From: Candidatus Falkowbacteria bacterium | GTDB lineage: Bacteria; Patescibacteriota; Patescibacteriia; XYB2-FULL-38-15 | Assembly (NCBI GenBank): GCA_037440105.1 | Contig: JBBIUS010000002.1 | Coordinates: forward strand, 2,685 to 66,684 | Reading direction: 5' to 3' | DNA length: 64,000 bases | Shown here: piece after piece, positions 1 to 61,516 of the stretch | Position numbering within the stretch: position 1 is the stretch's first letter | How the letters are laid out: each line of letters starts with the position of its first letter | The notes under the pieces: generated by a model | Seen by the model: only the letters and a program-made list of their open reading frames with translations | Told to the model about the DNA's origin: nothing | Database searches by the model: none | Position numbers and translations under genes: made by a program

Positions 1-18
1 TAAAAACATAAATTTTTA

Positions 19-146
19 AATTTCTAATTGCTCTAATGTCTAATAAAACTCCAACCCTCAAATCCCAATGATTAGAATTTTAGATATTTAGACATTGACC
101 ATTGGTCATTTATTAGGTTAATTAGAGATTAGGTCAATTAGAAATT
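19..146. repeat. Long imperfect intergenic hairpin built from 7-nt words
   Basis: AATTTCTAATTG (19-30) is the exact reverse complement of CAATTAGAAATT (135-146). Inner blocks CTCTAAT/ATTAGAG and TCTAATAAA/TTTATTAG also pair. The arms are runs of TTCTAAT-like heptamers. Confidence 0.7.
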
Positions 147-153
147 TTAATGT

Positions 154-3772: not shown

Positions 3773-3823
3773 AAGTCAACTATTTACAATTAACTATTAA
3801 CGATTAACATTTAACTATTCACT

Positions 3824-4654
3824 ATGAAAGGAAAGTATTTAAACTTTATTTTTATTAATTTATTTTTTGTTGCCGCAGTGTTTTTTTGCATTTTTACTTT
3901 ACTTCAAGGGAAAGCAGCGCAGAATTTTTTAGTGATTTCAATTTTCACTCTTGTTATTTTTCTTTTTTCACTTTGGCACTCTTTAATTAAATTTGGTTTT
4001 AAAAATGCTTTTTTCTTTTTATTTATTGCTCTTTTTTTAAGTTTTGCGGCAGAAGTTATCGGCGTAAATTTGGGTTATGAATTGCAAGGGTATTACAAAT
4101 ATTCAGATTTTTTGGGGTTTAAAATTCTTGATGTTCCGGTTTTGGTAATTTTGATGTGGGTTTCCGTAATTTACATTTCTTACCAAGTTTCAGAGCATAT
4201 CACCGATTTTAGATTTGAAAAAAATACAACTTTTTTACAGAAATTTTGGGTTAGTATTTGGAGCGCTTTTTTAACTGCTTTAATCACTGTTGCTTGGGAT
4301 ATCGGTCTTGACCCATTGGCTGTAAATTTAGGCTGGTGGGTTTGGGAAAAGGGCGGAGAATATTTTGGCGTGCCAATAGGTAATTTTATTGGTTGGATGA
4401 TTATTTCTTTTATCATTGTTTTTATTTTTAAATTATTTTTTGAAAAAGAATATTTAGAGAAAGAAACAGTAGCGGATTACGCTCCTTTAATTTGTTATAC
4501 GCTTTTGTGTTTTTCAACAATTTTTTTAGCGCTTTCTCAAGGAAGTTCGCTTTTTGCTTTTATTGTTTTTGTTAGCATGTTTCCAATTATTTCTATAATG
4601 ATTGTAAGGCTTTTGGTTATTCAACTTAGATTGCCGAGGCAATATAAAAAATGA
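3824..4654 (+). CDS. Polytopic membrane protein, possibly carotenoid-biosynthesis-associated (DUF422-like) family
   Basis: 276-aa ORF with many hydrophobic segments. The W/G-rich block DPLAVNLGWWVWEKGGEYFGVPIGNFIGW resembles that family from memory. Function is uncertain. Confidence 0.5.
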   Translation: MKGKYLNFIFINLFFVAAVFFCIFTLLQGKAAQNFLVISIFTLVIFLFSLWHSLIKFGFKNAFFFLFIALFLSFAAEVIGVNLGYELQGYYKYSDFLGFKILDVPVLVILMWVSVIYISYQVSEHITDFRFEKNTTFLQKFWVSIWSAFLTALITVAWDIGLDPLAVNLGWWVWEKGGEYFGVPIGNFIGWMIISFIIVFIFKLFFEKEYLEKETVADYAPLICYTLLCFSTIFLALSQGSSLFAFIVFVSMFPIISIMIVRLLVIQLRLPRQYKK

Positions 4655-9266: not shown

Positions 9267-9465
9267 AGCACGCATTCAAAATTCTCTGGTTAGCTGATTT
9301 GCGGCGGAAAATTATGAGTCAGGAATTAAGAATTATGGTTTAATTTGATATCCCTTAATTCATGATTCATGCTGCATGCTTCAGAAAAATTTGAATGTGT
9401 TTTTTAAATCTCAGATTTGGGGTATAATGCAAGGTAAGAATTTAATCTAAATTGCGTCTATTTAT

Positions 9466-11783: not shown

Positions 11784-12944
11784 ATGGTTTTTAAAAAACA
11801 AAAAGTGATAGTTGCCATGTCCGGAGGGGTTGATTCATCTGTAGCCGCTGCGATGCTAAAAAAGCAGGGTTATAATATTATTGGGGTTTTTATGAGGTTT
11901 TGGGCAGAGGATGGTACTGCAAGGGGCCGGGATGCGAAGAACATGCAGATGAGTATGCGAATGGATGCGAATAGGTGTTGCTCGTTTGAAGCATACAACG
12001 ATGCGCGAAGGGTGGCGCAAAAATTGGGGATTCCGTTATACACGATGAATTTAAAAATTCCATTTAAAAAATGGGTAGTTGATTATTTTTTAAAAGAATA
12101 TAAAGCAGGCCGAACCCCAAATCCTTGCGTGGAGTGCAATCGCTTTATAAAATTTGGGGAATTGTTGCGAAAGGCAAAAGCAATGGGCTCGGATTATGTT
12201 GCAACAGGACATTATGCCCGCATTTCGCGGGAAATTCCAAATTCCAAATTCCAAATTCCAAAATTGAAATTATTGAAAGGGAGAGACAGCGGGAAGGATC
12301 AATCGTATTTTTTGTATACGCTGACGCAGGAAAAATTGAAGCATGTTTTGTTCCCAGTGGGTAATTACACGAAATCGCAAGTTCGGCAGACGGCAAAAAA
12401 GTGGAAGTTGCCTGTATACGCAAAAAGAGATAGTCAGGAGATATGTTTTGTCAGCAAACGCCTTCAGGATTTTTTAAAACGTTGGCTTAAAATAAAAAGT
12501 GGGGGAATAGTGGAAATAGAAACTGGTAAAATTTTAGGCAAGCACAATGGTTTGCCGTTTTATACGATTGGTCAAAGAAAAGGATTGGGTTTAGGCAGCG
12601 GGCCCTGGTATGTGGTTGCCATTGATGCAAAAAGTAACATACTTTTTGTCAGTCGAGACGAGAAAAAATTATTGTCAAAAGAATTGCTTGTCACGAAATT
12701 GAACTGGGTTTCTGGCAGCGAACCAAAGTTGCCAATTCATGTTATGGCGCGTATTAGATATAAGCACAAAGAAGCGTCATGTCGCGTAGAAAGCGTGAAA
12801 GATGTACTAAAGCGTGGTAGATATAAAAATGTTTATAAAGTTATTTTTGACAAACCGCAAAGAGCAATTACACCAGGGCAATCAGTGGTGTTTTATCGAG
12901 GTGAAGAAGTGTTGGGTGGGGGAATAATCAATAAAAATGTGTAA
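11784..12944 (+). CDS. mnmA: tRNA-specific 2-thiouridylase
   Basis: 386 aa. PP-loop VAMSGGVDSSV, NPCVECNRFIKF and KDQSYFL motifs. Contains an in-frame (AAATTCC)x4 run at 12232-12259. Confidence 0.9.
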   Translation: MVFKKQKVIVAMSGGVDSSVAAAMLKKQGYNIIGVFMRFWAEDGTARGRDAKNMQMSMRMDANRCCSFEAYNDARRVAQKLGIPLYTMNLKIPFKKWVVDYFLKEYKAGRTPNPCVECNRFIKFGELLRKAKAMGSDYVATGHYARISREIPNSKFQIPKLKLLKGRDSGKDQSYFLYTLTQEKLKHVLFPVGNYTKSQVRQTAKKWKLPVYAKRDSQEICFVSKRLQDFLKRWLKIKSGGIVEIETGKILGKHNGLPFYTIGQRKGLGLGSGPWYVVAIDAKSNILFVSRDEKKLLSKELLVTKLNWVSGSEPKLPIHVMARIRYKHKEASCRVESVKDVLKRGRYKNVYKVIFDKPQRAITPGQSVVFYRGEEVLGGGIINKNV

Positions 12945-12963: not shown

Positions 12964-13106
12964 AAAATTTCTAATTTCTAATGTCAAATTTCTAATAAAT
13001 GTCCAATGTCTAATGTTCAATGTTATTAAAAGTTTCAGATTATTATTTGGGATTTGAGAATTTGAAATTTTATTAGGAATTGGAAATTAGGAATTGGGCA
13101 TTTTAA
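12964..13106. repeat. Long intergenic hairpin of heptamer words (TTTCTAA.../...TTAGGAA)
   Basis: The left arm is a run of TTTCTAA/TGTCTAA/TGTTCAA heptamers. The right arm is a run of ATTAGGA/ATTGGAA heptamers. Many positions pair only as G:U on the + strand. Confidence 0.6.
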
Positions 13107-13115
13107 AACTAATTT

Positions 13116-14897
13116 ATGACAGCTGATCAATTAAGAATAAAGTTTCTAGAATATTTTAAATTGAAGGGGCATACTATCTTGCCTTCTGCTTCTTTAATTC
13201 CAGAACATGACCCGACCGTTCTTTTTACTACGGCTGGCATGCACCCGTTAGTTCCATTTTTATTAGGCGAAAAGCATCCAGGCGGAAAAAGATTAGCTAA
13301 TATCCAAAAATGCATAAGAACCGGAGATATTGATGAGGTCGGCGATAATTGGCATCTAACCTTTTTTGAAATGCTTGGCAATTGGTCGCTTGGCGATTAT
13401 TTTAAGAAGGAAGCAATAGAAATGTCTTGGGAGTTTTTAACGGACAGAAAATGGTTGGGTTTGAATCCTCAAAAAATAGCTGTTTCTGTTTTTGTTGGTG
13501 ATCAAGATGCGCCATTTGATGAGGAGGCGTACAATCACTGGCGTAAAATTGGAATACCTGAAGCGCGGATTGCCAAATTAGGCAAAGAAGACAATTGGTG
13601 GGGTCCGGCAGGGGAAACAGGTCCGTGCGGGCCAGATACAGAAATTTTTTATTGGTCAGGCAACGAGCCCGTTCCGGATAAATTTGACCCAAAAGATAAA
13701 AGATGGACAGAAATTTGGAACAATGTTTTTATGCAGTATAATAAGACAGCAGAAGGGAAGTACGTGCCGCTAAAACAGAAAAATATTGATACTGGTATGG
13801 GCCTTGAGCGGACTGTAGCAGCGCTTCAGGGTAAAGCCAGTGTTTATGGAACAGAACTTTTTCAACCAATTATTAAAAAAATAATTGAAATAGCGGGCGT
13901 GCCGACAAGTACGGCAGATGAATTTTATTCCGTCAATCAAAAGGCAATCAGAATAATTGCTGACCACCTTAAAGCCGCGACATTTATTTTAGGCGATCCG
14001 ATTGGTGTTACACCTTCTAATTTGCGCCAAGGTTATGTTTTGCGTCGGTTAATTAGAAGAGCTATCCGCTACGCTAAACTGATTGGCATTGATACAAAAA
14101 AAGATTTCGCTGCGCCCATTGCTAGCGCAGTGATAGAAATTTATAAAGAAGTTTATCCAGAACTCGCAAAAAACGAAAGGAGAATTTTTTCTGAATTAAA
14201 TCTTGAAGAGAAACGATTTGAAAAAACGCTGGAAGTAGGATTAAAAGAATTTAACAAAATGTTAAAAGACGGAATGATCAGCGGAAAAGAAGCATTTATT
14301 CTTTTTTCCACCTATGGCTTTCCTCTTGAAATGACGCGCGAGTTAGTCATTGAAAAAGGCCTTGAAATTAACGAGAAAGAATTTGTAGAAGAATTTAAAA
14401 AGCATCAAGAGCTTTCCCGGACTGCTTCGGCCGGCCAGTTTAAAGGTGGTCTGAGCGATGCGAGCGAAGAGACAAAAAAACTTCATACCGCGACCCATCT
14501 TTTGCACGCGGCTTTACGCGAGGTGCTTGGTCCGCATGTTAAACAGCGTGGGAGCAATATTACGCCTGAGCGGTTGCGTTTTGATTTTTCCCATCCGCAA
14601 AAGTTAAGCGAATCAGAGATTAAGCGGATTAGCGAATTAGTTAATCAAAAAATTAAAGAAGGTTTGTCAGTGAAATGCGAAGAAATGAGCGTTGAGGAAG
14701 CAAAAAAGGCCGGAGCGATTGGTCTTTTTGAGCAAAAATACGGTGAGAAGGTAAAAGTTTATTCAATTGGTGACTTTAGTAAGGAAATCTGTGGTGGGCC
14801 GCATGTAAAAAATACCAAAGAATTAGGCCAGTTTAAGATTCAAAAAGAAGAAGCTTCGAGCGCCGGCGTGCGAAGAATAAAAGCAGTGTTGACATAA
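13116..14897 (+). CDS. alaS: Alanyl-tRNA synthetase, short form lacking the C-Ala domain
   Basis: 593 aa. N-terminal core FLEYFKLKGHTILPSASLIP and DPTVLFTTAGM. Editing-domain motifs HTATHLLHAAL and CGGPH. The ORF ends just after the editing domain. Confidence 0.9.
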   Translation: MTADQLRIKFLEYFKLKGHTILPSASLIPEHDPTVLFTTAGMHPLVPFLLGEKHPGGKRLANIQKCIRTGDIDEVGDNWHLTFFEMLGNWSLGDYFKKEAIEMSWEFLTDRKWLGLNPQKIAVSVFVGDQDAPFDEEAYNHWRKIGIPEARIAKLGKEDNWWGPAGETGPCGPDTEIFYWSGNEPVPDKFDPKDKRWTEIWNNVFMQYNKTAEGKYVPLKQKNIDTGMGLERTVAALQGKASVYGTELFQPIIKKIIEIAGVPTSTADEFYSVNQKAIRIIADHLKAATFILGDPIGVTPSNLRQGYVLRRLIRRAIRYAKLIGIDTKKDFAAPIASAVIEIYKEVYPELAKNERRIFSELNLEEKRFEKTLEVGLKEFNKMLKDGMISGKEAFILFSTYGFPLEMTRELVIEKGLEINEKEFVEEFKKHQELSRTASAGQFKGGLSDASEETKKLHTATHLLHAALREVLGPHVKQRGSNITPERLRFDFSHPQKLSESEIKRISELVNQKIKEGLSVKCEEMSVEEAKKAGAIGLFEQKYGEKVKVYSIGDFSKEICGGPHVKNTKELGQFKIQKEEASSAGVRRIKAVLT

Positions 14898-15500: not shown

Positions 15501-15529
15501 AAATTAAAAATTAAAAATGAAAAATTAAA
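15501..15529 (+). repeat. Exact 29-nt repeat, copy 1 (AAATTAAAAATTAAAAATGAAAAATTAAA)
   Basis: Identical 29-mer to the one at 16476-16504. Located just after the rpmJ stop. Confidence 0.85.
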
Positions 15530-15576
15530 GACACAAACTTAAGAACTTAAAAACTTAAGAACTTAAAAACTTATCT

Positions 15577-17172: not shown

Positions 17173-17235
17173 CAGGATAACAAAATAACAAAAATTGTTC
17201 TTAGTTATTTTGTTCTTGTGTTCTTGTAACTTAAT

Positions 17236-19524: not shown

Positions 19525-19649
19525 GCTTTTGCCGCGAGGACAGGGAATGGTCGGAAACCATAAGGTTTCCGATTTGCGGAAACATTAAAACCGCAGGGTT
19601 TTAAGGAGTCCCAACCGAAGCGTTGGGACGACCCGTAAGTGGCAAAAGC
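19523..19649 (+). ncRNA. Candidate structured RNA / inserted element: three hairpins closed by a 9-bp stem
   Basis: Closing stem GCTTTTGCC (19523-19531) / GGCAAAAGC (19641-19649). Hairpins are TCGGAAACC-ataa-GGTTTCCGA (19551-19572), TGCGG...CCGCA (19575-19595) and GTCCCAAC-cgaagc-GTTGGGAC (19608-19629). It is GC-rich relative to its surroundings. The class is unknown. Confidence 0.35.
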
Positions 19650-19667
19650 GATAAGCCTTAGTTTATT

Positions 19668-19756
19668 AAATCAACCACGGATTTTATTGCACGGATAACA
19701 TGGGTATTTGATTTATTTGTGTAAATCCTAGTGTAGCAAAAATCCGTGGTTGATTT
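19668..19756. repeat. Intergenic hairpin with 18-bp perfect stem
   Basis: AAATCAACCACGGATTTT (19668-19685) is the exact reverse complement of AAAATCCGTGGTTGATTT (19739-19756). Confidence 0.8.
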
Positions 19757-19788
19757 GTATTCAAAATTAAGTTAAAATTAGGTAATGT

Positions 19789-21274: not shown

Positions 21275-22402
21275 ATGAAAAAAGTTTTAATTGCAACAAT
21301 TGAATTTTTACCGCAGAAAGGCGGAATTGCAAATTATTTAGCAGGGTGGGCTGGAGCGCTGCCAGCTGACAAGGTAGCGGTTTTGACTTTAAAACATAGC
21401 AATGCGTCAGATTTTGATAGTCATAGTGCATACAAAATTTATCGCAAAAATTTGATTATTAGATTGCCGTTGTTTTGGCCGAAGTGGCTTCCGTTGGTTT
21501 GGCGTCTTTGGCGCGTGGCTCGTCGCGAAAAAGTCGATGCTATTTTAGTTGGTCAGGTTTTGCCGGTGGGCACAGTCGCGTTTTTGGTGAAAAAAATTTC
21601 AGGCATTCCGTATTTTGTTTCCTGTCACGGCATGGATATTTTGATGCCGCAAAAATCATCGCGCAAGAAAAAATTATTGAATAAAATTTTGGAACAGGCT
21701 GGCGGAATAATTGCTAACAGTCAGTTTACAAAAAATGAACTGATAAAATTAGGCGTGCCAGAAAATAAAATTACTGTTGTTTATCCGAGTCTCGGTACTA
21801 ATTGTGAATCAACCATTCCAATCGATGAAATAAAAAGAAAATATCATTTGGGGGATAAGAAAATTTTGCTTACTGTTGGTAGATTAGTGAAACGTAAGGG
21901 GCATGATAAAGTGATTGAAGCATTGTCAAAAATTTTGGAGCATGTGCCAGAAGTGGTTTATGTTATTGTTGGTGATGGCCCTGAACGAGAAAAGCTACAA
22001 GCCACAAGCTACAAGTTACAAGTTCAGGATAATATTTTATTTACTGGAGAAATATCTGAAGAGGAAAAAATGGCATTTTACCAACTGTGTGATATTTTCG
22101 TCATGGTTCCGCGGCAGATTGGGCCAGATGTCGAAGGTTTTGGTACAGTTTTTCTTGAAGCAAACCAATACGGCAAACCGACTGTCGCTGGAAGAAGCGG
22201 GGGAGTGGCTGAAGCAGTGATTGACGGTGTGACTGGAATAGTTGTCAATCCGATTGACACACAGCAGATCGCTCGGGCAGTGATTAAATTATTAACTGAT
22301 CAAGACTTGGCTAAAAAATTAGGTGAGCAAGGCAGAAAACGCGTAAGAGAAGAATTTCAGTGGCAGACTCAAGTAGAGAAATTAAAAAGATTACTAAAAT
22401 AA
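21275..22402 (+). CDS. Glycosyltransferase family 4
   Basis: ATG at 21275 is in frame with the track start at 21251 and lies after the upstream stop. C-terminal GT-B motif GFGTVFLEANQYGKPTVAGRSGGVAEAV. Heptamer run GYYACAA x4 at 21994-22021. Confidence 0.85.
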   Translation: MKKVLIATIEFLPQKGGIANYLAGWAGALPADKVAVLTLKHSNASDFDSHSAYKIYRKNLIIRLPLFWPKWLPLVWRLWRVARREKVDAILVGQVLPVGTVAFLVKKISGIPYFVSCHGMDILMPQKSSRKKKLLNKILEQAGGIIANSQFTKNELIKLGVPENKITVVYPSLGTNCESTIPIDEIKRKYHLGDKKILLTVGRLVKRKGHDKVIEALSKILEHVPEVVYVIVGDGPEREKLQATSYKLQVQDNILFTGEISEEEKMAFYQLCDIFVMVPRQIGPDVEGFGTVFLEANQYGKPTVAGRSGGVAEAVIDGVTGIVVNPIDTQQIARAVIKLLTDQDLAKKLGEQGRKRVREEFQWQTQVEKLKRLLK

Positions 22403-24945: not shown

Positions 24946-25767
24946 ATGAGTCAATATTTGGAAAAAACCGAACAAGAATTGCGCCTGCGCAATTACAGCC
25001 AAAAGACGATTAAAAGTTATCTTGGATGTTTGGCTGATTACCTCGCCGTGGCACATCATAATTCAGAAAATATTGATCTAGAGTTGATAAAAAATTTTTT
25101 ATTAGGAAAGCAAAGCAAGGGTTATGCTCCGCAAACCGTGAATCTCTATTTGAACGCCATAAAATTTTTTTATCGCGACGTTTTAAAAATTTCCCAAAGA
25201 ATAGATTTGAAATTTGCCAAGCAGGGTCAACGCTTGCCGATCGTTCTCTCGCGGGAAGAAGTTGACAGGCTAATCGGAGTAATAAAAAATGCCAAACATC
25301 GGTTGATGCTAGCCCTAGCTTATGGCGCTGGTTTGCGCGTCAGCGAGGTAATAAACTTGCGCATCAGAGACATTGACTTGCAAGAACTTACCATCCATAT
25401 AAAACAAACTAAAGGCAAAAAAGACCGCCTGACCGTGTTTCCAAAAAAATTAAAATCCGAGGTAGCCGCGCTTATTGCGCTCCGTGACCCAAATGATTTT
25501 GTATTTAGAAGCGAACGCGGTGGAAAATTAACCGAACGCGCTGCGCAAGTTATTTTTGAACGAGCAAAAGAGGCGGCAAAAATCAAAAAAAAGGCGACCT
25601 TTCATTCTCTCCGCCACAGTTTTGCCACGCATCTTTTGGAAAACGGAGTTGATGTCCGCTATGTTCAGGAACTTTTGGGTCACCAAAACATTCGCACCAC
25701 GCAGATTTACACCCATGTTACAAATCCTGCCATCAAAAATATTAGAAGTCCGCTAGATAGAACATGA
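24946..25767 (+). CDS. Tyrosine site-specific recombinase (Xer / integron-integrase-like clade, without the IntI-specific insertion)
   Basis: 273 aa. LAYGAGLRVSEV, HSLRHSFATHLL and LLGHQNIRTTQIYTHV, with a C-terminal ...IRSPLD tail. Confidence 0.9.
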   Translation: MSQYLEKTEQELRLRNYSQKTIKSYLGCLADYLAVAHHNSENIDLELIKNFLLGKQSKGYAPQTVNLYLNAIKFFYRDVLKISQRIDLKFAKQGQRLPIVLSREEVDRLIGVIKNAKHRLMLALAYGAGLRVSEVINLRIRDIDLQELTIHIKQTKGKKDRLTVFPKKLKSEVAALIALRDPNDFVFRSERGGKLTERAAQVIFERAKEAAKIKKKATFHSLRHSFATHLLENGVDVRYVQELLGHQNIRTTQIYTHVTNPAIKNIRSPLDRT

Positions 25768-25841
25768 ATCAGGAATTATGAATTAGGAATCAGGCTATCA
25801 GAAGTAAAACCATGACTCATAATTCATGATTCATAATTCAT
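25765..25841. repeat. Intergenic hairpin of GAATCAG/GAATTAG versus ATTCATA/ATTCATG heptamers
   Basis: Left arm ATGAATCAGGAATTATGAATTAGGAATCAGG. Right arm CCATGACTCATAATTCATGATTCATAATTCAT. Pairing is imperfect. The same word family recurs at 9320-9375, 40487-40567, 53855-53925 and 61107-61140. Confidence 0.6.
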
Positions 25842-25843
25842 TT

Positions 25844-28800
25844 ATGGACGATTTACTTAAAGATTTAAATCAAGAGCAGCGACAGGCGGTCATGCATAGC
25901 GACGGACCTTTGCTTATAATTGCTGGCGCGGGGACCGGGAAAACCACTGTTATTACGAGGCGGATTGCTTGGCTCATTTTGGAAAAGAGGATAAAGCCGG
26001 ACGAAATTTTGGCTGTGACTTTTACAGAAAAGGCAGCAGGGGAGATGGAAGAAAGAGTGGACCAACTTCTGCCTTACGGCTATGTTGATTTATGGATTTC
26101 GACTTTTCATTCTTTTTGTGAGCGAGTTTTAAAAGATCACGCGATTGATATAGGTTTACCTGGCGATTTTAAATTGCTAAATCAGACCGAGCAGTGGCTC
26201 TTGGTTCGCCAAAATTTAGAGCGATTCAATTTGGATTATTATCGGCCGCTTGGCAATCCGACAAAATTTATTCACTCGCTTTTGAAACACTTTAGTCGGG
26301 CAAAGGACGAGGAAATTTGGCCGGAGGATTATCTCCAGTATGTGGAAGAATTGCGGCTGAATGAAGATAATACTTTAAAGCAGGGCAAATTTGTTAAAAA
26401 TTCTACTAAATCACAAATCGCAAATTACAAATTACAAACAAATCCTAAATCCGAAATAATAAATACTCAATACGAAATACAAGATACGAAACGCTTAGAA
26501 GAAGTAGCTAACGCCTATCATACCTACCAGCAGCTGCTTTTAGAAAACAATGCTTTGGATTTTGGCGATTTAATAAATTATACACTTAAACTTTTTCGTA
26601 CCCGGCCGGCAATTTTGGGAAAATACCGGCAGAAGTTTAAGTATATTTTAGTTGACGAATTTCAAGACACAAATTGGGCGCAGTATGAGTTGATAAAAAT
26701 GCTGGCCGCCCCCAAAAACAATCTGACAGTTGTTGGTGATGACGATCAGTCAATTTATAAGTTTCGCGGCGCATCTATCAGCAACATTTTGCAGTTTAAA
26801 AACGATTATCCAAAATGCCGGGAAATTGTTATTACTGACAATTACCGCACGAAACAAAATATTTTGGATTTGGCCTATAAGTTTATTAAACAAAACGATC
26901 CGAATCGGTTGGAGGCAAAATTGGGAATCGTGAAAAAACTAGCAGCCAAAAGAAATGGGGATGGGGTCATAGAGCACATCCATGCGCGCACAGCCGATGC
27001 CGAAGCCAGGGCTGTAGCAGAAAAAATTTTGGAGTTGAAAAACAAAGATAAAGCAATTAATTGGCAGGATTTTGCTATTTTAGTTAGAGCTAATAACCAA
27101 GCAGAAATGTTTATGCCCGTCCTAGATCAGTACGGCATTCCTTATCAATTTTTGGCGTCGAGTGGACTTTATTCAAAGCCAATTATTTTAGATATCATCG
27201 CTTATCTAAAACTACTTGATAATTATCATGAATCTGGGGCAGTTTATAGAATTTTAAACATGCCAATGGTTGATTTAGCTTACGATGATATTGTGAAATT
27301 GAATTATTTTTCTCGGAGGAAAAACTGGTCGCTTTATGAAACGATGAAAAACGCGGCAGCAGTTGGGGTTTCAGGTGAAGGTTTGCGAAAAATAAATAAA
27401 ATTCTAGGTTTTGTAGAAAAACACACCTCTTTGGCAAGGGGGAATGGGGTTGGCAAGGTAGTTTTTAAATTTTTGGAAGATTTTAAATATTTGGCAAATT
27501 TAACTCGTCGAGCAGAAAAAGGGGATTTGCGAGCCGTAGAAAATATTAGTTATATCAACCAGTTTTTAAAAAGAGTTGATGAATTTGAGCGAACTGATCC
27601 ATCGAGATCATTGAAGAATTTTATGGCTGAATTGGATATGGCTTTGGAGTCCGGCGAAGAAGGCTCTTTGGCTTCAAGTTTTGAAGAGGGCCCAGAGGCA
27701 GTGAAAATTTTGACGGTGCACGGAGCAAAAGGTTTAGAATTTAGATATGTTTTTATTGTTAATTTAGTTGATTTGCGTTTTCCTTCGACAGACCGCAAAG
27801 AGCCAATTGAACTGTCTGACGCTTTAGTAAAAGAGATCGTCCCAGAAGGCGATATTCATCTTGAGGAAGAGCGGCGGCTTTTTTATGTTGCCATGACCCG
27901 GGCGCGCGACGGGGTGTTTTTTACTTCCGCTTCTGACTACGGCGGCCAGAGAAAAAAGAAATTGTCGAGGTTTTTAGTGGAGTTAGGGTTTTCGGCGCCG
28001 GAAGTCAAAACCCCCACTGGTCAAGTTTATTTTAATGAGGAAAAACAGTCAGAGGAGCGCGGACCAAGTGTAAAGAAATACTGGCTGCCCAGCAGATTCA
28101 GTTTTACTCAACTTAAAGCTTTTGAAACCTGTCCTTTGCAGTACAAATTTGCCCATATTCTTGCTGTGCCGGTTCGCGGAAAATTTACTTTTAGTTTTGG
28201 CAAAACAATGCATGGCACGTTGTATAAATTTTTTCAAGGAATGATAGAACGCAGTAAAATAACGCAAAGCAATTTATTTGGAGCAATGGAGGCCGAAGAG
28301 CACCGCGGTCATTCTGGTTTTATGCTAAAAAACGCTAAATTAGAAGCAGCACCATCACTTGATGACCTTTTAAAAATTTATGAAGAGTCGTGGATTAATG
28401 ATTGGTATGAAAGCAAGGCGCATCATGACGAATATAAAAAGAAGGGGAAAGAAATTTTGCGTGAGTTCTATAAAATTCACGAAGGTAAATGGCCGAAAGT
28501 AAAATATTTAGAGAAGGGTTTTAATTTGAAAGTAGGGGATTATACTGTTCGCGGTGTGATTGATCGGGTAGACGAAGTGCCAGGCGGTCTTGAAATCATT
28601 GATTATAAAACCGGCAGCGTGCCGCGCGACGAGAGATATTTAGAAAAAGAACAATTATTAATTTATCAACTAGCAACTTGTGATGTTTTTGGCGAAAAGC
28701 CGGCTCTTTTGAGTTATTATTATTTAGACGAAAATAAAAAAATATCATTTTTAGGAAGTGATGAAGATTTAAAGGGGATTCGCGAAAAAATTATTACTAC

Positions 28801-28900: not shown

Positions 28901-29026
28901 CTCAAATCTCAAAACGCAAAACTCAAAACCAAAACCTTATAACTTAAAATTTTTTGATGGTTTAGAAAAATAAAATTAGTTTTGGAGTTTTGAGATATAG
29001 TTTTGACATTTGACATTTGAGTTTTA
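28901..29026. repeat. Intergenic hairpin of CTCAAAA/CGCAAAA versus GTTTTGA heptamers
   Basis: CTCAAATCTCAAAACGCAAAACTCAAAACCAAAACC faces GTTTTGGAGTTTTGAGATATAGTTTTGACATTTGAC. Confidence 0.6.
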
Positions 29027-29764: not shown

Positions 29765-29849
29765 AAATTTACAATTTACTAATTTTCAATTTACAATGAA
29801 TTTTTAAATTTCAAATTGATTGAAAATTGTAAATTGAAAATCGGAAATT
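29765..29849. repeat. Intergenic hairpin of ATTTACA/AATTTTC versus TGTAAAT/GAAAATT heptamers
   Basis: AAATTTACAATTTACTAATTTTCAATTTACAATG faces ATTGATTGAAAATTGTAAATTGAAAATCGGAAATT. Confidence 0.65.
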
Positions 29850-39242: not shown

Positions 39243-39246
39243 ATTT

Positions 39247-39341
39247 CCCCTCTTAAGTTAAGAGGGGATTAGGGGGATTTATGAGCCGTTGTTTTAAAAT
39301 CCACGACTCATAACCTCTTCTAACTTCCCCTTATTTTAAGG
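39247..39341 (+). repeat. Intercistronic ~95-nt palindromic element, copy A (serS-alr)
   Basis: Starts with the hairpin CCCCTCTTAA-gt-TTAAGAGGGG and has a central hairpin TTATGAG...CTCATAA. It shares identical blocks of 17, 15 and 13 nt with the reverse complement of 47553-47651. Its 3' end carries the AAGGAG upstream of alr. Confidence 0.8.
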
Positions 39342-39357
39342 AGAAGAAAAATGAAGT

Positions 39358-40488
39358 ATGAAAACATGGGTTGAAATAAATAAAAATAATTTGCTCCATA
39401 ATTTGGAGCAATTTAAAAAATTAGTTGGCGATAATGTAAAAATCATGGGCGTGGTTAAGGCTAATGCTTACGGCCACGGCTTGCTTGAAGTAGCCGGCGT
39501 TATTTCCGATAAAGTTGATTGGTTTGGGGTAGATTCACTATCAGAAGCCTTGAAATTGCGGCAAGCCGCCATTAAAGAGCCGATTTTGGTTTTGGGCTAT
39601 GTGGAATTGAGAGATTTGCGCGAGGCCGTAAAAAATAATATTTCTCTTACAGTTTATAATAAAGAAACGATTGAAAAACTCGGGAAAATTCCGATTCAAA
39701 ATCCAAATTTAAGTCCTAAAGTGCATATTAAACTTGAGACCGGCACCTCACGACAAGGAGTTTTAGAAAGTGACTTAATTGATTTTGTAAAATTTATTAA
39801 ACAGTACCCTTCAATTCAGATAGAAGGACTTTCTACGCATTACGCCAATATTGAAGACACGACTGATTCAAGTTATGCTATGGAGCAGTTAGCAACTTTT
39901 TCCCGCGTGGCGTCTATGTTGGAAGAGAATGGCACTACGATTCCACTGAAGCACACAGCTTGTTCAGCAGCGACAATCTTATTTCCAGAAACGTATTTTG
40001 ATATGGTGCGGCTGGGAATAAGCATGTATGGCCTTTGGTCATCAAAAGAAACAAAAGCTGTTGCAAAAAATAAAGGTGTAGATTTAAGTTTTAAACCAGT
40101 GTTATCATGGAAAACAATTGTGGCACAAATTAAAAATGTGAAAGCCGGCACGTCCATTGGGTATGGTTTAACCGAGCGCGTTACTCGTAATTCAAAAATT
40201 GCCGTTTTGCCAGTTGGTTATTGGGACGGTTATGATCGAAAACTTTCAAGCGTTGGTAATGTCTTAATCCACGGCAAGCGCTGCAAAGTTTTAGGTCGCG
40301 TTTGCATGAATATGATTGTTGTTGACGTGACTGATCTGAAAAAAATTGAATTGGAAGATGAGACGGTACTCTTAGGTCGGCAGGGGAGAGAAGAAATTAG
40401 CGCTGACGAGTTAGCACAAAAAATTGGAACAATAAGTTATGAAATCATAACAAGAGTCAATCCATTAATTCCGCGATTAATTGTGTGA
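39358..40488 (+). CDS. alr: Alanine racemase
   Basis: 376 aa. PLP-lysine motif VVKANAYGHG and C-terminal ...YEIITRV. Confidence 0.9.
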   Translation: MKTWVEINKNNLLHNLEQFKKLVGDNVKIMGVVKANAYGHGLLEVAGVISDKVDWFGVDSLSEALKLRQAAIKEPILVLGYVELRDLREAVKNNISLTVYNKETIEKLGKIPIQNPNLSPKVHIKLETGTSRQGVLESDLIDFVKFIKQYPSIQIEGLSTHYANIEDTTDSSYAMEQLATFSRVASMLEENGTTIPLKHTACSAATILFPETYFDMVRLGISMYGLWSSKETKAVAKNKGVDLSFKPVLSWKTIVAQIKNVKAGTSIGYGLTERVTRNSKIAVLPVGYWDGYDRKLSSVGNVLIHGKRCKVLGRVCMNMIVVDVTDLKKIELEDETVLLGRQGREEISADELAQKIGTISYEIITRVNPLIPRLIV

Positions 40489-40567
40489 ATTATGAATCAG
40501 GAATTAGGAATCAGGGTTTTTAAAAGATCTAATCCATGATTCATAATTCATGATTCCTGATTCATAA
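40487..40567. repeat. Intergenic hairpin of the GAATCAG/GAATTAG word family
   Basis: GAATTATGAATCAGGAATTAGGAATCAGGG faces TCCATGATTCATAATTCATGATTCCTGATTCATAA. Confidence 0.65.
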
Positions 40568-40575
40568 ATAAAATT

Positions 40576-41742
40576 ATGCCAATAAAAAAAACTAAAGGTG
40601 GGAGAAAGATTCGCGTAGGGATCATATTCGGTGGCCGGTCCGGCGAACACGAGGTTTCTTTGGTTTCGGCAGAATCAGTGATGAGGGCTTTAGATAAGAA
40701 AAAATATCAAGTGATTCCAATAGGGATTACTAAAGCGGGGGAGTGGGCGGTAGATAAATCAAAAATCAAAAATCAAAAATCAAAATTGTTGGAATTGTTC
40801 AAGAAAGAAAAAATTAAAAAAGGATCGTGGCTGCCGCCGGAGATTTTGACAAAAGTTGATGTTGTGTTTCCGGTCTTGCACGGAACCTACGGCGAGGATG
40901 GGACAATTCAAGGGCTGTTTGAAATGATTAACGTTCCATATGTTGGAGCCGGTGTTTTGGGTTCAGCCGTTGGAATGGACAAGGTGGTGCAAAAACAGTT
41001 GTGCGAGCAAGCCAGATTGCCGGTTGTAAAATATGTTTGGTTCTATAGCAATGTTTTGCGACAACTGAAAGGTGTTCGTAAAACATTGCGCGATAAAGCG
41101 ACGCTCGCAAAATGTAGCCTTATCGATATTGTGCGACACATAGAAAAGGCGCTGGGTTATCCGTGTTTTATAAAACCGGCGAATTTAGGATCCAGTGTAG
41201 GTATCTCTAGAGCTAAAAACAGGCGAGAATTGATTGCAGGCATTAATTTAGCCGCAAAATACGATCGAAAAATTTTAGTTGAAAAAATTTGTCCAAATGT
41301 GCGGGAAATTGAATGCAGTGTTTTAGGTAATGATAAACCTATCGCGTCTCTGCCGGGCGAAGTAGTTCCATCTGGGGAATTCTATGATTATGACGCAAAA
41401 TATGTCGACGGGAAATCAAAAACTATAATTCCGGCGAAACTGCCGTCGAAATTAGTACGGCGAGTCCAAAATCTGGCCTGTTGCGTCTTTCAAATCACGG
41501 ATTGCGCCGGTATGGCCCGCGTGGATTTTTTACTGGATAATAAGCGGGGAAAAGTATACATCAACGAAATAAATACAATTCCAGGCTTCACTTCAATTTC
41601 AATGTATCCAAAACTCTGGCAGGCCTCGGGACTATCGTACAGCGATCTGCTCGACATCCTTATTAATCTTGCCATTCAAAGATTTAAAGAAAAACAAAAA
41701 CTTTTGATTTCTTACAAGCCCAAGAAAAAGTGGTATAGATAA
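40576..41742 (+). CDS. ddl: D-alanine--D-alanine ligase
   Basis: 388 aa. [36 protein letters not shown] and an ATP-grasp C-domain (ARVDFLLD...[12 protein letters not shown]). In-frame (AAATCAA)x4 at 40756-40783. Confidence 0.9.
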
Positions 41743-41787
41743 AAACAAACTTAAGAACTTATAAACTTATAAACTTAAGAACTGAAA

Positions 41788-42660
41788 ATGGCTGGACGTC
41801 GATTCTTAGATTTTCATAAAAAAAATTATCGCAACCCATTTTTTAGAAGGTCAAAACGTGGGTTTCATTTTTTTAAAAAAAGCCGAAAAGAGAAATTATA
41901 TTTATGGCGAAGAAGAGTTGTCTTGTTTTTTATTTTGATAACTGCCGTTGGATGGGTTTGGCTCTTTTTTTATTCTCCTTATTTTAAAATTGAAAAAATA
42001 GAAATTTTAGGATTGGAGCAAATAGATAAAAATGAAATAAAAGCAATCGTTGATTCTCAACTTTTTAATCGGCGTTTTTTAATTTTCCGGCAAAGCAATA
42101 TTTTTATATTTGATGAGAAATCTCTTTCAAAAAATATAAATGCTAAGTATTTTCTTAACAATTTAGCTATTAACAAAGATTTACCATCTACTTTAATAAT
42201 TCAAATAAAAGAAAAAACTTCAAAATTGATTTGGGTAACCAATAATAAAAATTATTATCTTGATTTGAGCGGAACCGTTATTGGCGAGGTAGCTGCGTTA
42301 CCAACCGCAGAAACAGAAGGGGTGTCTTCGGCAAAAAATCTGCCAATAATCTATGATGAGAGTAATAAAGAAGTAAATATTGGAGAAAAAGTTTTGGAAG
42401 AAAGCCGTGTTTTGGCAGTCATTGAATTAACTGAAAGAATTTTACAATTTACGGGAGTAGAAATTGATTTTTATAAATTGATAAATGGAATCGAATTGAG
42501 AGCGATTACAAAAGAAGGCTGGTATATTTTATTTGCTGATGATAACATCGAAAATCAATTAAAGAAGTTGGATTTGATTTTAAAAGAAAAAATTAAAGAG
42601 AAACGAAAAAATTTAGAATATATTGATTTGAGATTTGAAGACAGGGTTTATTATAAATAA
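41788..42660 (+). CDS. ftsQ: FtsQ-type cell-division protein (TM + POTRA)
   Basis: 290 aa. Basic N-terminus, one TM (VVLFFILITAVGWVWLFF) and a POTRA-like FKIEKIEILGLEQIDKNEIKAIV. It follows ddl. Confidence 0.7.
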   Translation: MAGRRFLDFHKKNYRNPFFRRSKRGFHFFKKSRKEKLYLWRRRVVLFFILITAVGWVWLFFYSPYFKIEKIEILGLEQIDKNEIKAIVDSQLFNRRFLIFRQSNIFIFDEKSLSKNINAKYFLNNLAINKDLPSTLIIQIKEKTSKLIWVTNNKNYYLDLSGTVIGEVAALPTAETEGVSSAKNLPIIYDESNKEVNIGEKVLEESRVLAVIELTERILQFTGVEIDFYKLINGIELRAITKEGWYILFADDNIENQLKKLDLILKEKIKEKRKNLEYIDLRFEDRVYYK

Positions 42661-47544: not shown

Positions 47545-47552
47545 TTCTATTT

Positions 47553-47651
47553 CCTCCCATTAAGTTAAGGGGAGATTATGAGGGGTTATGAGTCGTTGAT
47601 TTTAAAACAACGATTCATAACTCTCCCAGCCCTTCTTAACTTAAGAGGGGG
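47553..47651 (-). repeat. Intercistronic ~95-nt palindromic element, copy B (thpR-wecB/tagA)
   Basis: The reverse complement aligns with 39247-39341. Its 3' end (minus strand) supplies GGGAGG 7 nt before the ATG at 47544. Confidence 0.8.
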
Positions 47652-47652
47652 A

Positions 47653-53837: not shown

Positions 53838-53930
53838 TTACTTATATTGGATTACGGCTTATGAATCACAAATAACATATTTCTAGCACCATTTCCTGAT
53901 TCATAATTCCTAATTCTTGATTCTAAAACT

Positions 53931-57767: not shown

Positions 57768-58796
57768 ATGGATTCTAAAATAAAAGCAGATAAACTGTGT
57801 TCTATTTTTAAAGAACATCGCACCAGGCAACAAAGCGAGGTGCGTGTTCTTTTTATTGGCAGTGGTGAATTCGCCGCGACAATATTAAAGAAAATAATGT
57901 ACTCAAATCTCAGACCAATAGCGATTATCACTCAGCCATCTAAATTAGCAGGCAGGCATCAAGTCATTTCTCCAACCTCAGTTAAGAAAATTGCAGAAAA
58001 ATACAATATCAATGTTTATGAACCTAAAGATCTAAAAGATGAAAAAACTGAAAAATTAATCAATTTACTTAAACCGGATTTAATTATTGTGACTGACTAT
58101 GGAAAAATTATTCCTAAAAATATTTTAGATGTCCCAAGGTTTAATTCTGTAAATATTCATCCATCGCTTTTGCCAAAATACCGCGGGCCTTCCCCTATTC
58201 AATATACAATTTTAAACGGCGAAAAAGAAACCGGGGTAACAATTATTTTAATGGACGAAAAAGTGGATCACGGCCCGATTTTGGCAAATTACAAATTACA
58301 AATTACAAATTACAAAATTACTTATACTGAGCTGTTAAAAAATTTAGCGGAATTAGGTGGCGATTTATTAATAAAAATAATACCGCAATGGTTAGCTGGT
58401 GAAATCAAGCCGACACCGCAAGATGATTCGCGGGCAATTTACACTAAAATTTTGACACGTAAAGATGGAAAAATAAATTGGCACAAATCAGCGGAAGAGA
58501 TCGAGCGGCAAATTCGCGCTTTTGAAAAGTGGCCTGGCAGTTGGAGCGAATGGTCAGTAGACAACAAAAAGTTTCGATTGAAAATTTTAAAAGCGAGAAT
58601 TTTACATCAGACAGTAGGTTGCGCGGAAAATCAAACGCCCGGATTTGTTTTTTTAACTGAACAAAAAGAAATGGCAATAAATTGTAATCCTGGAAGTTTA
58701 ATTATGGAAGAATTACAATTGGAGGGCAGGAAAAAAATGACTAGTGGAGAATTTTTAAGAGGTTACCCAAAAATCATTGGTTCGGTTTTAATGTAA
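57768..58796 (+). CDS. fmt: Methionyl-tRNA formyltransferase
   Basis: 342 aa. VLFIGSGEFA, NIHPSLLPKYRGPSPIQ and a C-terminal beta-barrel. There is a ~25-aa N-terminal extension. In-frame (CAAATTA)x4 at 58285-58312. Confidence 0.9.
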   Translation: MDSKIKADKLCSIFKEHRTRQQSEVRVLFIGSGEFAATILKKIMYSNLRPIAIITQPSKLAGRHQVISPTSVKKIAEKYNINVYEPKDLKDEKTEKLINLLKPDLIIVTDYGKIIPKNILDVPRFNSVNIHPSLLPKYRGPSPIQYTILNGEKETGVTIILMDEKVDHGPILANYKLQITNYKITYTELLKNLAELGGDLLIKIIPQWLAGEIKPTPQDDSRAIYTKILTRKDGKINWHKSAEEIERQIRAFEKWPGSWSEWSVDNKKFRLKILKARILHQTVGCAENQTPGFVFLTEQKEMAINCNPGSLIMEELQLEGRKKMTSGEFLRGYPKIIGSVLM

Positions 58797-58830
58797 TTAG
58801 AAAAGAATATTAGTCTGTATTAAAAAATTA

Positions 58831-58868
58831 TTATAACATTTTTGGACGGCCGCATCAAAATGTTATAA
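58831..58868. repeat. AT-rich 12-bp inverted repeat around a CGGCCGC-containing centre
   Basis: TTATAACATTTT (58831-42) and AAAATGTTATAA (58857-68) flank tggaCGGCCGCatc. Confidence 0.7.
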
Positions 58869-58886
58869 ACATTTTTTCTAAATAAT

Positions 58887-58916
58887 AAAAAATCCGCCAA
58901 ATTTAGCGGATTTTTT
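58887..58916. terminator. Bidirectional terminator (fmt / small zinc-ribbon gene)
   Basis: AAAAAATCCGC-caaattta-GCGGATTTTTT. Confidence 0.75.
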
Positions 58917-58934
58917 ATTATTTATCAGTTGATT

Positions 58935-59992: not shown

Positions 59993-61492
59993 TTAACATT
60001 TCTTGGTAAAAAATATGCTGCATAAAATTATATAGCCAATTCCTAAGGGGTGATTTAAATATGGGCTAAAGAAATTTGTTGCTAAAAGAGCTAGAATTCC
60101 GAGGAGCAAACCAAGGGGGAGAAAGTCTCCTGCTTGCCATAAACGCCACCCAGAACGCCAAATTTTAGTGATTAAAAGGAGATAAACGACCAGCCCGGCC
60201 AAGCCGATTTTAAGCATAATGTCCAAATATCCCCATTCAAAGGCATAGGTAGTGAATTGCCCAGTTGGATTAAACTGCAAGGCGCGAGGATCGCTACTTT
60301 TGTAAGTGACAGTTGTGCCAAAGCCAGAGCCAATAACCGGGTGTTTTATAACTGCTTTGCCAAGCGGTGGAAGTAAATCCCAGCGGCTTCTGACCGCGGC
60401 TTCATTCAAATCAGTTAATCTTTCTTCTAACATTGAACCCCAAGAGATTTTGCTTGGCGTTGGGTACGGAAATTTGACGGTGATAAAAATCGCGGCGGCT
60501 GAGGTAACAAGTATGACTAGACCACAGAGTCCTATCTTTAAAATTTTTCTAAAGGGAAATTTTAGAAAGATTAAGAATATTAAAAGTGTCAAAAGCCCTA
60601 AAGCCAAGCCGACCCAGAAACTGCGGGAAAAGCTAATGAGAATAGATGAAAGACATCCAGTAACCAATAACGAGTAACGAGCAATAAGTACTTTGCTTTT
60701 GTCTTTTTGCCAGACCAAGAAGGCAATAAAAATAAATAGGGCGATTAACACATAAATTTGCGACTGAAAAAATATTCGGTAAAAACCGCTGCCCATCAAG
60801 GTTATCTCCCCTATTAAAAATTGCCGTAGCCACCGGTAAAGCGGATACATTGCCACTTCCAGATTGTGAGAAAAAATGTAAAGAAGAAAAAATGTTTTAA
60901 TGACAATAATAGTAACCGCGGCTGTTAAAATTTGCAGGATGTTTTCAATTTGCTCGCGCGATTTTACGACATCCACGATCGGAAAAATTAAACCAAAATA
61001 TAGCCAACCGTTGAAATCAAAAAATATATTTTGGAAAGAATTCCCGCGAATTAGCCCCCAAACAAAACCCCAGGCAATAAAGATAAACAGAATCCAATAG
61101 ATACGAGGAATCAGGAATTTAGAATCATGAATTATGGTTTTTGAATTTTGAATTTGTGATTTGGAATTTATTTGGAATTTAGAATTTGACATTTGAATTT
61201 TTCTGAACAACCATACACCAAACACAACTATGAAAAATGCTATGCGTAAAGAAATCGATACACTACCCGTGTCAAAGTAGAAAAGGTACCCTTTCGAACC
61301 AATAAACAATTCCGCTAGCAGAATATAAAGTCCGTATTCCAATTTTTCCAAAGTCAAAATCAGTGTCAGGGTCAAAATTACAAAAAAGGCCACTTTGTTA
61401 AAAAGCGGAAAAAGATATGCGACAAAAGACAAAATCAAAGCAAAAGAGATGAAAAGCAGTGATGTTTTAAAATATTTACCAAATAAATCCAT
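59993..61492 (-). CDS. O-antigen ligase/polymerase-like (Wzy-type) polytopic membrane protein
   Basis: 499 aa with >10 TM segments and a central loop region typical of O-antigen-ligase-like proteins. It contains ~13 in-frame heptamer words at 61107-61201. Confidence 0.65.
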   Translation of the reverse strand: MDLFGKYFKTSLLFISFALILSFVAYLFPLFNKVAFFVILTLTLILTLEKLEYGLYILLAELFIGSKGYLFYFDTGSVSISLRIAFFIVVFGVWLFRKIQMSNSKFQINSKSQIQNSKTIIHDSKFLIPRIYWILFIFIAWGFVWGLIRGNSFQNIFFDFNGWLYFGLIFPIVDVVKSREQIENILQILTAAVTIIVIKTFFLLYIFSHNLEVAMYPLYRWLRQFLIGEITLMGSGFYRIFFQSQIYVLIALFIFIAFLVWQKDKSKVLIARYSLLVTGCLSSILISFSRSFWVGLALGLLTLLIFLIFLKFPFRKILKIGLCGLVILVTSAAAIFITVKFPYPTPSKISWGSMLEERLTDLNEAAVRSRWDLLPPLGKAVIKHPVIGSGFGTTVTYKSSDPRALQFNPTGQFTTYAFEWGYLDIMLKIGLAGLVVYLLLITKIWRSGWRLWQAGDFLPLGLLLGILALLATNFFSPYLNHPLGIGYIILCSIFFTKKC

Positions 61493-61516
61493 AACTCATG
61501 ATTCGTAATTCATAAT

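Follow-up and report, generated by a model that had tools for sequence, protein, structure and literature searches.

Why does the short spacer between two housekeeping genes of a compact bacterial genome hold a 143-nt hairpin assembled from 7-nt words? The question is raised by the junction of mnmA and alaS in a Candidatus Falkowbacteria bacterium (Patescibacteriota; assembly GCA_037440105.1), whose genome, 956 kb in 85 contigs, carries Patescibacteria hallmarks such as an alanyl-tRNA synthetase (AlaRS) of 593 amino acids without the C-Ala domain. The stretch analysed, here called the window, comprises 64,000 nucleotides of contig C2 (JBBIUS010000002.1; C2:2685-66684), and the hairpin in question, the exemplar, lies at 12964-13106 between mnmA (11784-12944) and alaS (13116-14897). 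With moderate confidence we favour the answer that this hairpin and its many counterparts are foldback elements of the intervening sequence (IVS) type which lack an open reading frame (ORF), whose arms drift by 7-nt slippage, and which are probably RNase III substrates within transcripts. They would represent copies of dispersed foldback repeat families rather than punctuation designed by the host.

The exemplar folds into a single long imperfect hairpin (-35.4 kcal/mol, z-score -4.53), and none of 200 dinucleotide shuffles folds equally well. Tandem Repeats Finder (TRF) detected period-7 arrays in both arms which, together with the fold, bears out a preliminary description of the arms as runs of 7-nt words and their complements. 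The loop, of about 20 nt, holds no ORF, and the element matches the profile of a repeat family, family A, from model position 2 to 130 of 135 (nhmmer E 5e-10). Its parts are as follows:

12964-13106, plus strand: the exemplar, an ORF-less family-A copy filling the mnmA-alaS junction (fold, TRF, nhmmer)
about 12964-12999, plus strand: outer left arm, AATTTCT words
about 13000-13068, plus strand: inner arms and loop, AATGTCY words
about 13069-13104, plus strand: outer right arm, AGGAATT/GGAAATT words

Whole-element families of this kind were revealed by an all-against-all BLAST comparison of the spacers. Family A is a palindrome of about 135 nt. Its ends, AAAATTTCTAATT ... AATTAGAAATTT, are sharp, and between them lie a conserved inner arm (AAATGTCCAATG...) and the loop region; the profile search returned 13 full-length loci, at 78-86% identity, besides fragments, about 15 loci in all. 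The hexamer cores CTAATT/AATTAG are almost invariant, with variation in the intervening one to three bases, and relative to the genes three copies have the same and eight the opposite orientation. A second copy in the window aligns with the exemplar over its entire length:

14-147, minus strand: family-A copy in the orientation opposite to the exemplar (nhmmer E 1.8e-24, model positions 2-133; z-score -4.55)

Family membership is a general feature of the heptamer hairpins: for 48 of 74, a second junction holds a match of 60 nt or more with at least 75% identity, as compared with 77 of 441 other junctions. The preliminary description had held the pattern to be neither that of repetitive extragenic palindromic (REP) sequences or bacterial interspersed mosaic elements (BIME), nor that of MITEs (miniature inverted-repeat transposable elements). 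The first part stands; the second has to give way to multi-copy, dispersed palindromic elements with defined ends, which share sequence with gene cassettes and an rRNA insert.

The cassettes encode S23p, the small "23S rRNA intervening sequence protein". A search of the genome for this family (PF05635) yielded 14 matches, far above most relatives, and inverted arrays of 7-9-nt words flank about nine of the 12 PF05635 loci examined, mostly abutting the ORF, with the neighbouring genes on the same strand. In other genera, nine to ten of 11 sampled PF05635 loci are likewise flanked by inverted 7-9-nt arrays, and one locus of another genus uses the words GAATTATGAATCAGGAA, which are present in this window too. 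On either side of the S23p ORF C8:15656-16027, the flanking DNA is matched by the family-A profile (positions 23-75 and 72-134), such that the ORF, whose protein matches PDB 2RLD (E 6e-14), sits exactly in the family-A loop; the inner-arm words encode its first codons (MTNDPMPKK), and the arms, when joined, pair at -35.1 kcal/mol. The S23p gene of the cassette C5:8000-8330, which is frameshifted, takes its ATG from words of the left arm and its TGA from words of the right, and two hairpins of the window correspond to the arms of this cassette closed over a 15-17-nt loop without an ORF:

40486-40567, strand not assigned: GAATYAK-family hairpin filling the alr-ddl junction (-28.8 kcal/mol, z-score -5.07)
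25764-25841, strand not assigned: GAATYAK-family hairpin with an arm match to the C5 cassette (z-score -4.26)

The first word of the former supplies the TGA stop codon of alr, and the latter overlaps the stop codon of a recombinase gene together with the called start (25826) of a pcrA-like gene. In a strict test, which required both arms of a cassette to match contiguously at one ORF-less locus, four of 11 S23p cassettes had such a counterpart, compared with none of 212 control genes of similar size.

A third setting of the elements is rRNA. The single 23S rRNA gene (C4:37216-40751) is 3536 nt long, as compared with a model of 2925 positions, and contains at C4:37442-37596 (model positions 225-232) an insert of 155 nt which is a heptamer-armed hairpin (AAATTAA words). 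Over 129 nt, the insert shares 84% identity with an element located between two protein genes (C26:8802-8924), and it is 81-89% identical to two further elements. The occurrence of the same families as S23p-in-loop cassettes and as an insert in 23S rRNA points to IVS-type elements which have colonised the transcribed spacers of protein genes. The tests on this genome favour the IVS-like reading, and they add two observations, namely an S23p ORF in the loop of a member of family A, to which the exemplar belongs, and an rRNA insert homologous to intergenic elements. Further inserts of about 70 nt and about 35 nt are present downstream within the first 800 nt of the 23S gene, with others beyond. 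The rRNA genes of the candidate phyla radiation (CPR), the same bacterial group, have been described to hold short (<200 bp), uncharacterised ORF-less inserts as well as 23S_rRNA_IVP ORFs (PMC11270868), and the 155-nt insert fits the ORF-less class; the available part of that survey deals with rRNA genes only and mentions neither arms of 7-nt words nor homologous copies between protein genes.

The closest known parallel is the IVS of Coxiella, which forms a stem-loop within the 23S rRNA, carries an S23p ORF in that loop and is cut out by RNase III. Directly upstream of the ORF, GACAGAT heptamers stand in tandem, in two or three units depending on the strain, and the origin and role of the element are described as unknown (PMC4990558). 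The likeness to the 23S IVS with S23p of Coxiella burnetii, Leptospira, Salmonella and others (PMC4990558) includes the complementary terminal arms that form a long stem, the PF05635 ORF in the loop of sister copies (C8, C5, C19, C52 and others), the tandem heptamers next to the ORF start (7-/8-mer arrays abut PF05635 ORFs both here and in 11 relatives' loci), one related copy inside a 23S rRNA gene, and the presence of RNase III, for which one gene was found in the genome. The exemplar itself shares the stem-loop and has neither the location in a 23S helix nor a PF05635 ORF in its loop; unlike the classical IVS, most copies reside between protein genes without an ORF, their arms are multi-word arrays with periodic mismatches instead of a near-perfect 28-bp stem, and there are dozens of them per 1-Mb genome.

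When did the exemplar arrive? Many relatives keep mnmA and alaS as neighbours, although AlaRS identity is just 70% even for the nearest genome compared. Within the same family the junction varies: in G005, G006 and G002 the two genes overlap or are at most 4 nt apart, and about 20-33 nt separate them in two others; the junction of G001 (80 nt) contains an ordinary GC hairpin, and that of G007 (79 nt) a heptamer hairpin of GTATCTN/ATACTAA words. On the closest metagenome contig (80% AlaRS identity), a GTATCTA/ATACAAA hairpin of about 70 nt occupies the junction, its first words encoding the last residues of MnmA and the stop codon. A scan of metagenome AlaRS sequences for filled and empty sites yielded no contig of the same species, the best (L039) having 80% protein identity. 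At the alr-ddl junction, 87 nt here with an 81-nt hairpin contrast with 8 nt in G003, the single orthologous junction compared, ddl having been found in five of 13 genomes searched, this one included. The comparison among related genomes that had been called for at the outset thus reveals turnover: orthologous junctions differ both in length and in word family. Since relatives have junctions of 0-80 nt with other words or none, the hairpins are to be seen as lineage-specific additions, whose words are replaced over time, and the exemplar would have landed in a short mnmA-alaS spacer after the lineage split from the sampled relatives.

The alaS locus offers two observations of its own. In two relatives, the AlaRS match is split within one open frame of about 651 amino acids, which corresponds to an in-frame insertion in alaS, of about 148 nt after residue 406 in L025 (G006:C1:190942-192882) and of about 76 nt after residue 385 in L028 (G002:C1:334171-336108). 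Furthermore, the motif ACTAATTT directly 5' of the alaS ATG (window 13096-13118) is kept in the genome studied here (G000) as well as in G003 and G007, and in part also in G002, in spite of the differences among relatives in the remaining mnmA-alaS spacer.

What then accounts for the 7-nt words? Genome-wide, the autocorrelation of intergenic DNA amounts to 0.331 at lag 7, as compared with about 0.297 for lags 9-13, and smaller peaks echo it at 14 and 21; that of coding DNA is flat. The strict (near-perfect) tandem arrays comprise 101 of period 7, eight of period 8 and two of period 6; arrays of periods 4, 5 and 9-12 were absent from the genome, and shuffled sequence gave none of any period. 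The 7-nt enrichment and the genome-wide character of the word architecture, as first described, are therefore real, and the recurrence of word families at distant sites was confirmed by TRF and arm matching. An inverted partner within 200 nt accompanies 20 of 47 intergenic arrays, and five of 47 in a mirror-repeat control. The mismatches of the hairpin arms recur at lag 7 (0.367 vs about 0.28), which is the outcome that independent homogenisation of each arm by slippage would give. Arrays without a second arm are found in the window both between and inside genes:

3778-3825, plus strand: single-armed AACTATT array (6.9 units) without a hairpin (TRF; minimum free energy of the junction 0 kcal/mol, lag-7 identity 0.68)
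15504-15573, plus strand: single-armed array of 8-mers (AAACTTAA) that reaches to the rpsM start, sister of the array at 41747-41788 (TRF)
41747-41788, plus strand: single-armed AAACTTAA array upstream of the next gene (TRF, 5.2 units)
12232-12262, plus strand: in-frame array (AAATTCC, 4.4 units) inside mnmA (TRF, translation)
21992-22022, 26408-26491, 40756-40785, 58285-58321 and 61115-61201: five further in-frame heptamer arrays (TRF, translations)

The last of these, an 87-nt GAATYAK/GAATTT heptamer tract, is translated in frame as part of a membrane protein (KIQMSNSKFQINSKSQIQNSKTIIHDSKF; minus-strand ORF 59993-61492), whose peptide TIIH(N/D)S is identical to the arm-encoded C-terminus of the S23p cassette C5:8000-8330.

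Heptanucleotide repeats have precedents in simple sequence repeats (SSRs), namely the short tandemly repeated repetitive (STRR) sequences of Calothrix and Nostoc, the GGGAATC repeats of Xanthomonas with 70-75 inverted pairs (PMC4692102), and the TAACTGA arrays of Beggiatoaceae, which end just before start codons or run into ORFs (PMC4679880). The strong over-representation of tandem heptamers in non-coding DNA is common to all, and some convergent pairs of Xanthomonas can form stem-loops; in those genomes the simple arrays use one or a few G-rich or fixed units, as opposed to 40 or more AT-rich ones, grouped into several families, in the present genome, whose arrays belong to complete palindromic elements in dispersed copies. 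The available parts of PMC4692102 and PMC4679880 contain no link to S23p genes. Modelled on the STRR and long-SSR repeats of cyanobacteria and Xanthomonas, the hairpins could be understood as a pure by-product of replication, in which heptamers slip in place, strand-switching yields the inverted partners, S23p is merely nearby, and nothing is mobile or functional. The near-exclusive period 7 among tandem arrays would agree with such an origin, as would the single-armed arrays inside genes with their 21-nt-compatible lengths, the lag-7 mismatches, the 40 different units, the turnover of words at orthologous junctions, and the failure to find MutS or SbcD in the genome; along these lines, it has been proposed that a heptamer matches the DNA segment held by the polymerase and hence slips more (an idea cited in PMC4692102). 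Slippage in place is difficult to reconcile with whole elements of about 80% identity at 13-15 unlinked junctions, including inner arms, loop region and defined ends, with long partners elsewhere for 65% of the heptamer hairpins, with the same element carrying an ORF in its loop or residing in the 23S rRNA gene, and with the 0/212 control genes whose flanks match a contiguous ORF-less locus. A neutral origin should furthermore fill convergent spacers too, where the density is eight times lower. We consider this explanation unlikely on balance.

The placement of the elements among gene junctions provides the next clue. The genome has 630 co-directional junctions, 407 of them 40-300 nt long; a significant hairpin is present in 173, 74 combine a hairpin with a strong period 7 and 83 hold non-heptameric hairpins, and lag-7 identity reaches at least 0.4 in 152 of the 630. 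Heptamer hairpins are therefore carried by some 12-24% of co-directional junctions, and by about 8-10 of 49 in the window, not by most of them, as had been stated. With a lenient detector, 127 period-7 arrays were counted in 86 kb of co-directional spacers (19% of junctions, 4.7% of spacer bases), eight in 22.8 kb of divergent and three in 16.6 kb of convergent spacers. Convergent gene ends have strong hairpins (median z-score -4.0) without 7-nt periodicity. Between the upstream stop codon and the beginning of a heptamer hairpin lie 2 nt in the median, and between its end and the next start 12 nt; family-A copies often leave just 3-5 nt on either side. Among the examples listed in the preliminary description, the exemplar and six of nine others fold significantly, with z-scores of -3.1 to -5.1; the hairpin at 53855 is marginal, and those at 9320-9375 and 17173-17235 are weak. 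In addition to those given above, the window contains (no strand assigned):

2331-2499: hairpin with TACGAAAT/ATTTCGT end words and a long interior (-45.4 kcal/mol; junction z-score -7.7; TRF)
9310-9375: short, weak GAATYAK-family hairpin (arm match; z-score only -1.54)
17173-17235: weak ATAACAAA/TGTTCTTG hairpin in a ribosomal-protein operon (z-score -2.09; TRF period 8)
28901-29026: AACTCAA/AACGCAA-family hairpin directly after the stop codon of the pcrA-like gene (z-score -3.09)
29765-29849: AATTTAC-family hairpin (z-score -4.15 sense, -4.79 antisense)
53855-53925: degenerate GAATYAK-type hairpin, right arm intact and left arm decayed (TRF TTCCTAA, 3.4 units; z-score -2.22)
61485-61519: AATTCAT array of the GAATYAK family at a minus-strand gene junction (TRF, 4.9 units; arm match to the C5 cassette)

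The hairpin 28901-29026 matches the arms of the S23p cassette C19:9428-9787, and 29765-29849 is 85% identical over 100 nt to C21:7034-7165. No Rfam family matches anywhere in the window.

Could the host have selected these structures as RNA elements that tune the neighbouring cistrons, be it by allowing processing within the operon, by stabilising 3' ends or by attenuating termination? Their strong enrichment in co-directional junctions, which are transcribed through, would be expected in this case, and so would the near-invariant CTAATT/AATTAG cores of family A with their variable spacer bases; RNase III without a detectable Rho would fit as well, and with GGAG-like (Shine-Dalgarno-like) motifs upstream of only about 11% of genes genome-wide (crude start calls), leader structure could matter. 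As a side observation, among the genes with a GGAG-like upstream motif, 63% have T at position -1, again with crude start calls. The role of a terminator, which the preliminary description had suggested, is unlikely in view of the missing U-tract, the AT-rich stem base and the near absence from convergent spacers (three arrays in 16.6 kb): the 8 nt after the stem contain a mean of 2.8 T, equal to background, with six or more T in 3% of hairpins, and the last six bases of the stem contain 1.2 G/C. An intrinsic (Rho-independent) terminator, with a GC-rich stem followed immediately by a U-tract, was accordingly rejected.

Arm mismatches compatible with G:U pairing on the transcribed strand had also been taken as a sign of function at the RNA level. 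This holds for the exemplar, whose antisense strand folds at only -15.1 kcal/mol as compared with -35.4 kcal/mol for the sense strand, and is not clearly seen genome-wide. When each spacer was aligned to its own reverse complement with all mismatches scored alike, at the DNA level, 208 co-directional hairpins gave 402 G:T and 340 A:C mismatches, for which base composition predicts a ratio of 1.09; higher score cut-offs gave 236:195 and 87:82. As these counts are near the composition expectation, G:U asymmetry as a proof of RNA-level function was rejected genome-wide. Of 74 hairpins, 47 are more stable as the sense strand (47:27), an upper bound because the set was chosen on its sense-strand z-score. 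Selection by the host is further opposed by the use of other, non-heptameric hairpins at convergent gene ends and by the lack of conservation, the same gene pairs of relatives being 0-8 nt apart or overlapping; non-conservation at orthologous junctions and the two orientations of family A (three same, eight opposite) constitute evidence against a conserved host function. Taken together, host selection appears distinctly improbable as an explanation of the hairpins. Roles in processing or stabilisation are possible; the genome has an RNase III gene, no Rho was found, and the elements are located inside operons.

A tyrosine recombinase gene of the XerA/integron-integrase-like type at 24946-25767 brings in another candidate, since the hairpins might be folded single-strand recombination sites resembling attC. 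Integron attC sites have RYYYAAC / GTTRRRY cores and a fixed orientation and are located where mobile cassettes have their 3' ends. Models of integron integrases score on the recombinase gene, a GAATYAK hairpin begins at its stop codon, and the hairpins are, as attC sites are, imperfect, 60-140 nt long and situated at 3' ends of co-directional genes. On the other hand, they separate housekeeping genes (mnmA/alaS, alr/ddl, ribosomal proteins) instead of cassettes, the orientation of family A is mixed, its ends lack RYYYAAC...GTTRRRY cores, and GC-rich palindromes centred on GCGATCGC or GCGGCCGC form a separate class, so that recombination sites of this type are highly improbable. Palindromes of the latter class flank ORFs of about 176-194 amino acids on contigs C49, C17, C5, C19 and C4 and may be candidate integron-like cassette sites; in the window, perfect AT-rich stems centred on GCGATCGC or GCGGCCGC occur at 58797-58928 and 62366-62525.

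Among mobile palindromes, REP/BIME are GC-rich imperfect palindromes of 20-40 nt mobilised by REP-associated tyrosine transposases (RAYT), and the heptamer hairpins, at 60-170 nt and AT-rich, differ from them. MITEs and the Rickettsia palindromic elements, non-coding palindromes of about 100-150 nt with many dispersed copies and a related ORF-bearing form, come closer, being alike in size, dispersal and the existence of an ORF-bearing relative. The heptamer elements have dispersed copies with defined ends and inverted termini in common with MITEs; no transposase partner or target-site duplication was found, and the arms are tandem words, not unique terminal inverted repeats. The ORF-bearing parent would encode S23p, which is not a known transposase.

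Returning to the IVS-type reading, the following course can be envisaged. The ORF-less hairpins would be to the S23p cassettes what MITEs are to full elements, being derivatives (or hosts) of the cassettes. Once in place, each arm would behave as a heptamer microsatellite in which 7-nt slippage homogenises the words; such slippage would account for both the mismatches every 7 nt and the fast turnover of words, and a genome without detected MutS or SbcD would favour slippage as well as the survival of palindromes. In polycistronic RNA, the arms would fold into long imperfect duplexes, which the single RNase III would probably cut, as it does the stems of classical IVS.

Several points weigh against this reading. 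The 101 period-7 arrays comprise 40 different canonical units, many arrays having private words, and the 54 arrays inside ORFs are single-armed, with an inverted partner in 7/54 as compared with 8/54 in the mirror control; part of the signal is thus explained by slippage in place without mobility. Random insertion does not predict the eight-fold enrichment of co-directional over convergent spacers, for which a dependence on read-through transcription, by analogy with IVS in rRNA operons, is a possible reason. The 23S insert is located in a single-stranded joining region of the consensus and not in helix 9, 25 or 45, the sites of classical IVS. In family A, no compensatory changes were seen among 17 consensus pairs, and no direct repeats indicative of target-site duplication flank the copies. 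No mobilising enzyme for the heptamer elements was identified in the genome: a Y1/RAYT transposase was rejected as mobiliser, the sole Y1 gene being flanked by different, GC-rich REP-like hairpins, and we know of no catalytic activity of S23p. Only four of the 11 S23p cassettes passed the strict test. Across 31 genomes, heptamer density in unbiased 20-kb samples correlates with PF05635 copy number with a rho of 0.48, uncorrected for phylogeny; the five genomes without PF05635 had no array in 145 kb, and one genome with 13 copies had none in its unbiased sample, which leaves the link between S23p and heptamers across genomes only suggestive.

A bolder extension would regard the heptamer foldback and S23p, an Avd-like pentameric four-helix bundle, as an unrecognised mobile class resident in transcribed spacers (rRNA helices and operon junctions), with S23p as a nucleic-acid-binding propagation factor that acts on 7-nt repeats, and with ORF-less progeny that explain the excess of heptamers elsewhere. 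We would call this speculative and unlikely as it stands; if true, it would cover the heptamer excess of cyanobacteria, Xanthomonas and Beggiatoaceae together with the Coxiella IVS.

Since about 1990, to our knowledge, neither the origin of 23S IVS and their S23p genes nor their function or mechanism of mobility has been known, and the excess of heptamer repeats in bacterial genomes has lacked an explanation since 2007. A literature search returned no description of heptamer-armed hairpins between Patescibacteria genes. In this context, one small genome displays the element in three states, in rRNA, between genes with an S23p ORF and between genes without an ORF, which ties an old class of rRNA inserts to ordinary gene junctions and makes these questions testable. 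There are consequences for annotation, too: the elements provide genes with stop and start codons and encode stretches of conserved enzymes, at their termini or internally, and they inflate the "intergenic" DNA of otherwise extremely compact Patescibacteria genomes.

Some further repeats and structures were noted in passing. The sole Y1 (IS200/RAYT-like) transposase, C14:6990-7983, with the HUH motif "SNHHHC", has arrays of short GC-rich hairpins (TTAGCCACTTTAGTGGCGTC, GACCCGACTAAAGTCGGTTAG) on both sides, an arrangement that resembles a REP/RAYT system, here in a member of the Patescibacteria. The sole reverse transcriptase found belongs to a diversity-generating retroelement on a 1.8-kb contig (C68:1-1830), and no link between this enzyme and the heptamer hairpins was shown; a G7 run splits it in two, the opposite strand beside it bears an ORF for an Avd-like four-helix bundle, a GC-rich repeat marks the contig start, and a GTAACCC heptamer array follows 300 nt downstream. 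In the window, 39243-39357 and 47545-47652 belong to a second, non-heptameric palindromic family with ends CCCCTCTTAAGTTAAGAGGGG and inner stem TTATGAGYCGTTG; they share 80% identity over 129 nt, and a further copy is present at C16:5192-5457. Finally, the spacer 19525-19788, upstream of the gene at 19789, is very stably structured (-104.5 kcal/mol, z-score -9.7); it has no match in Rfam, and a partial copy of it (85% identity, 94 nt) occurs at C9:2615-3347.

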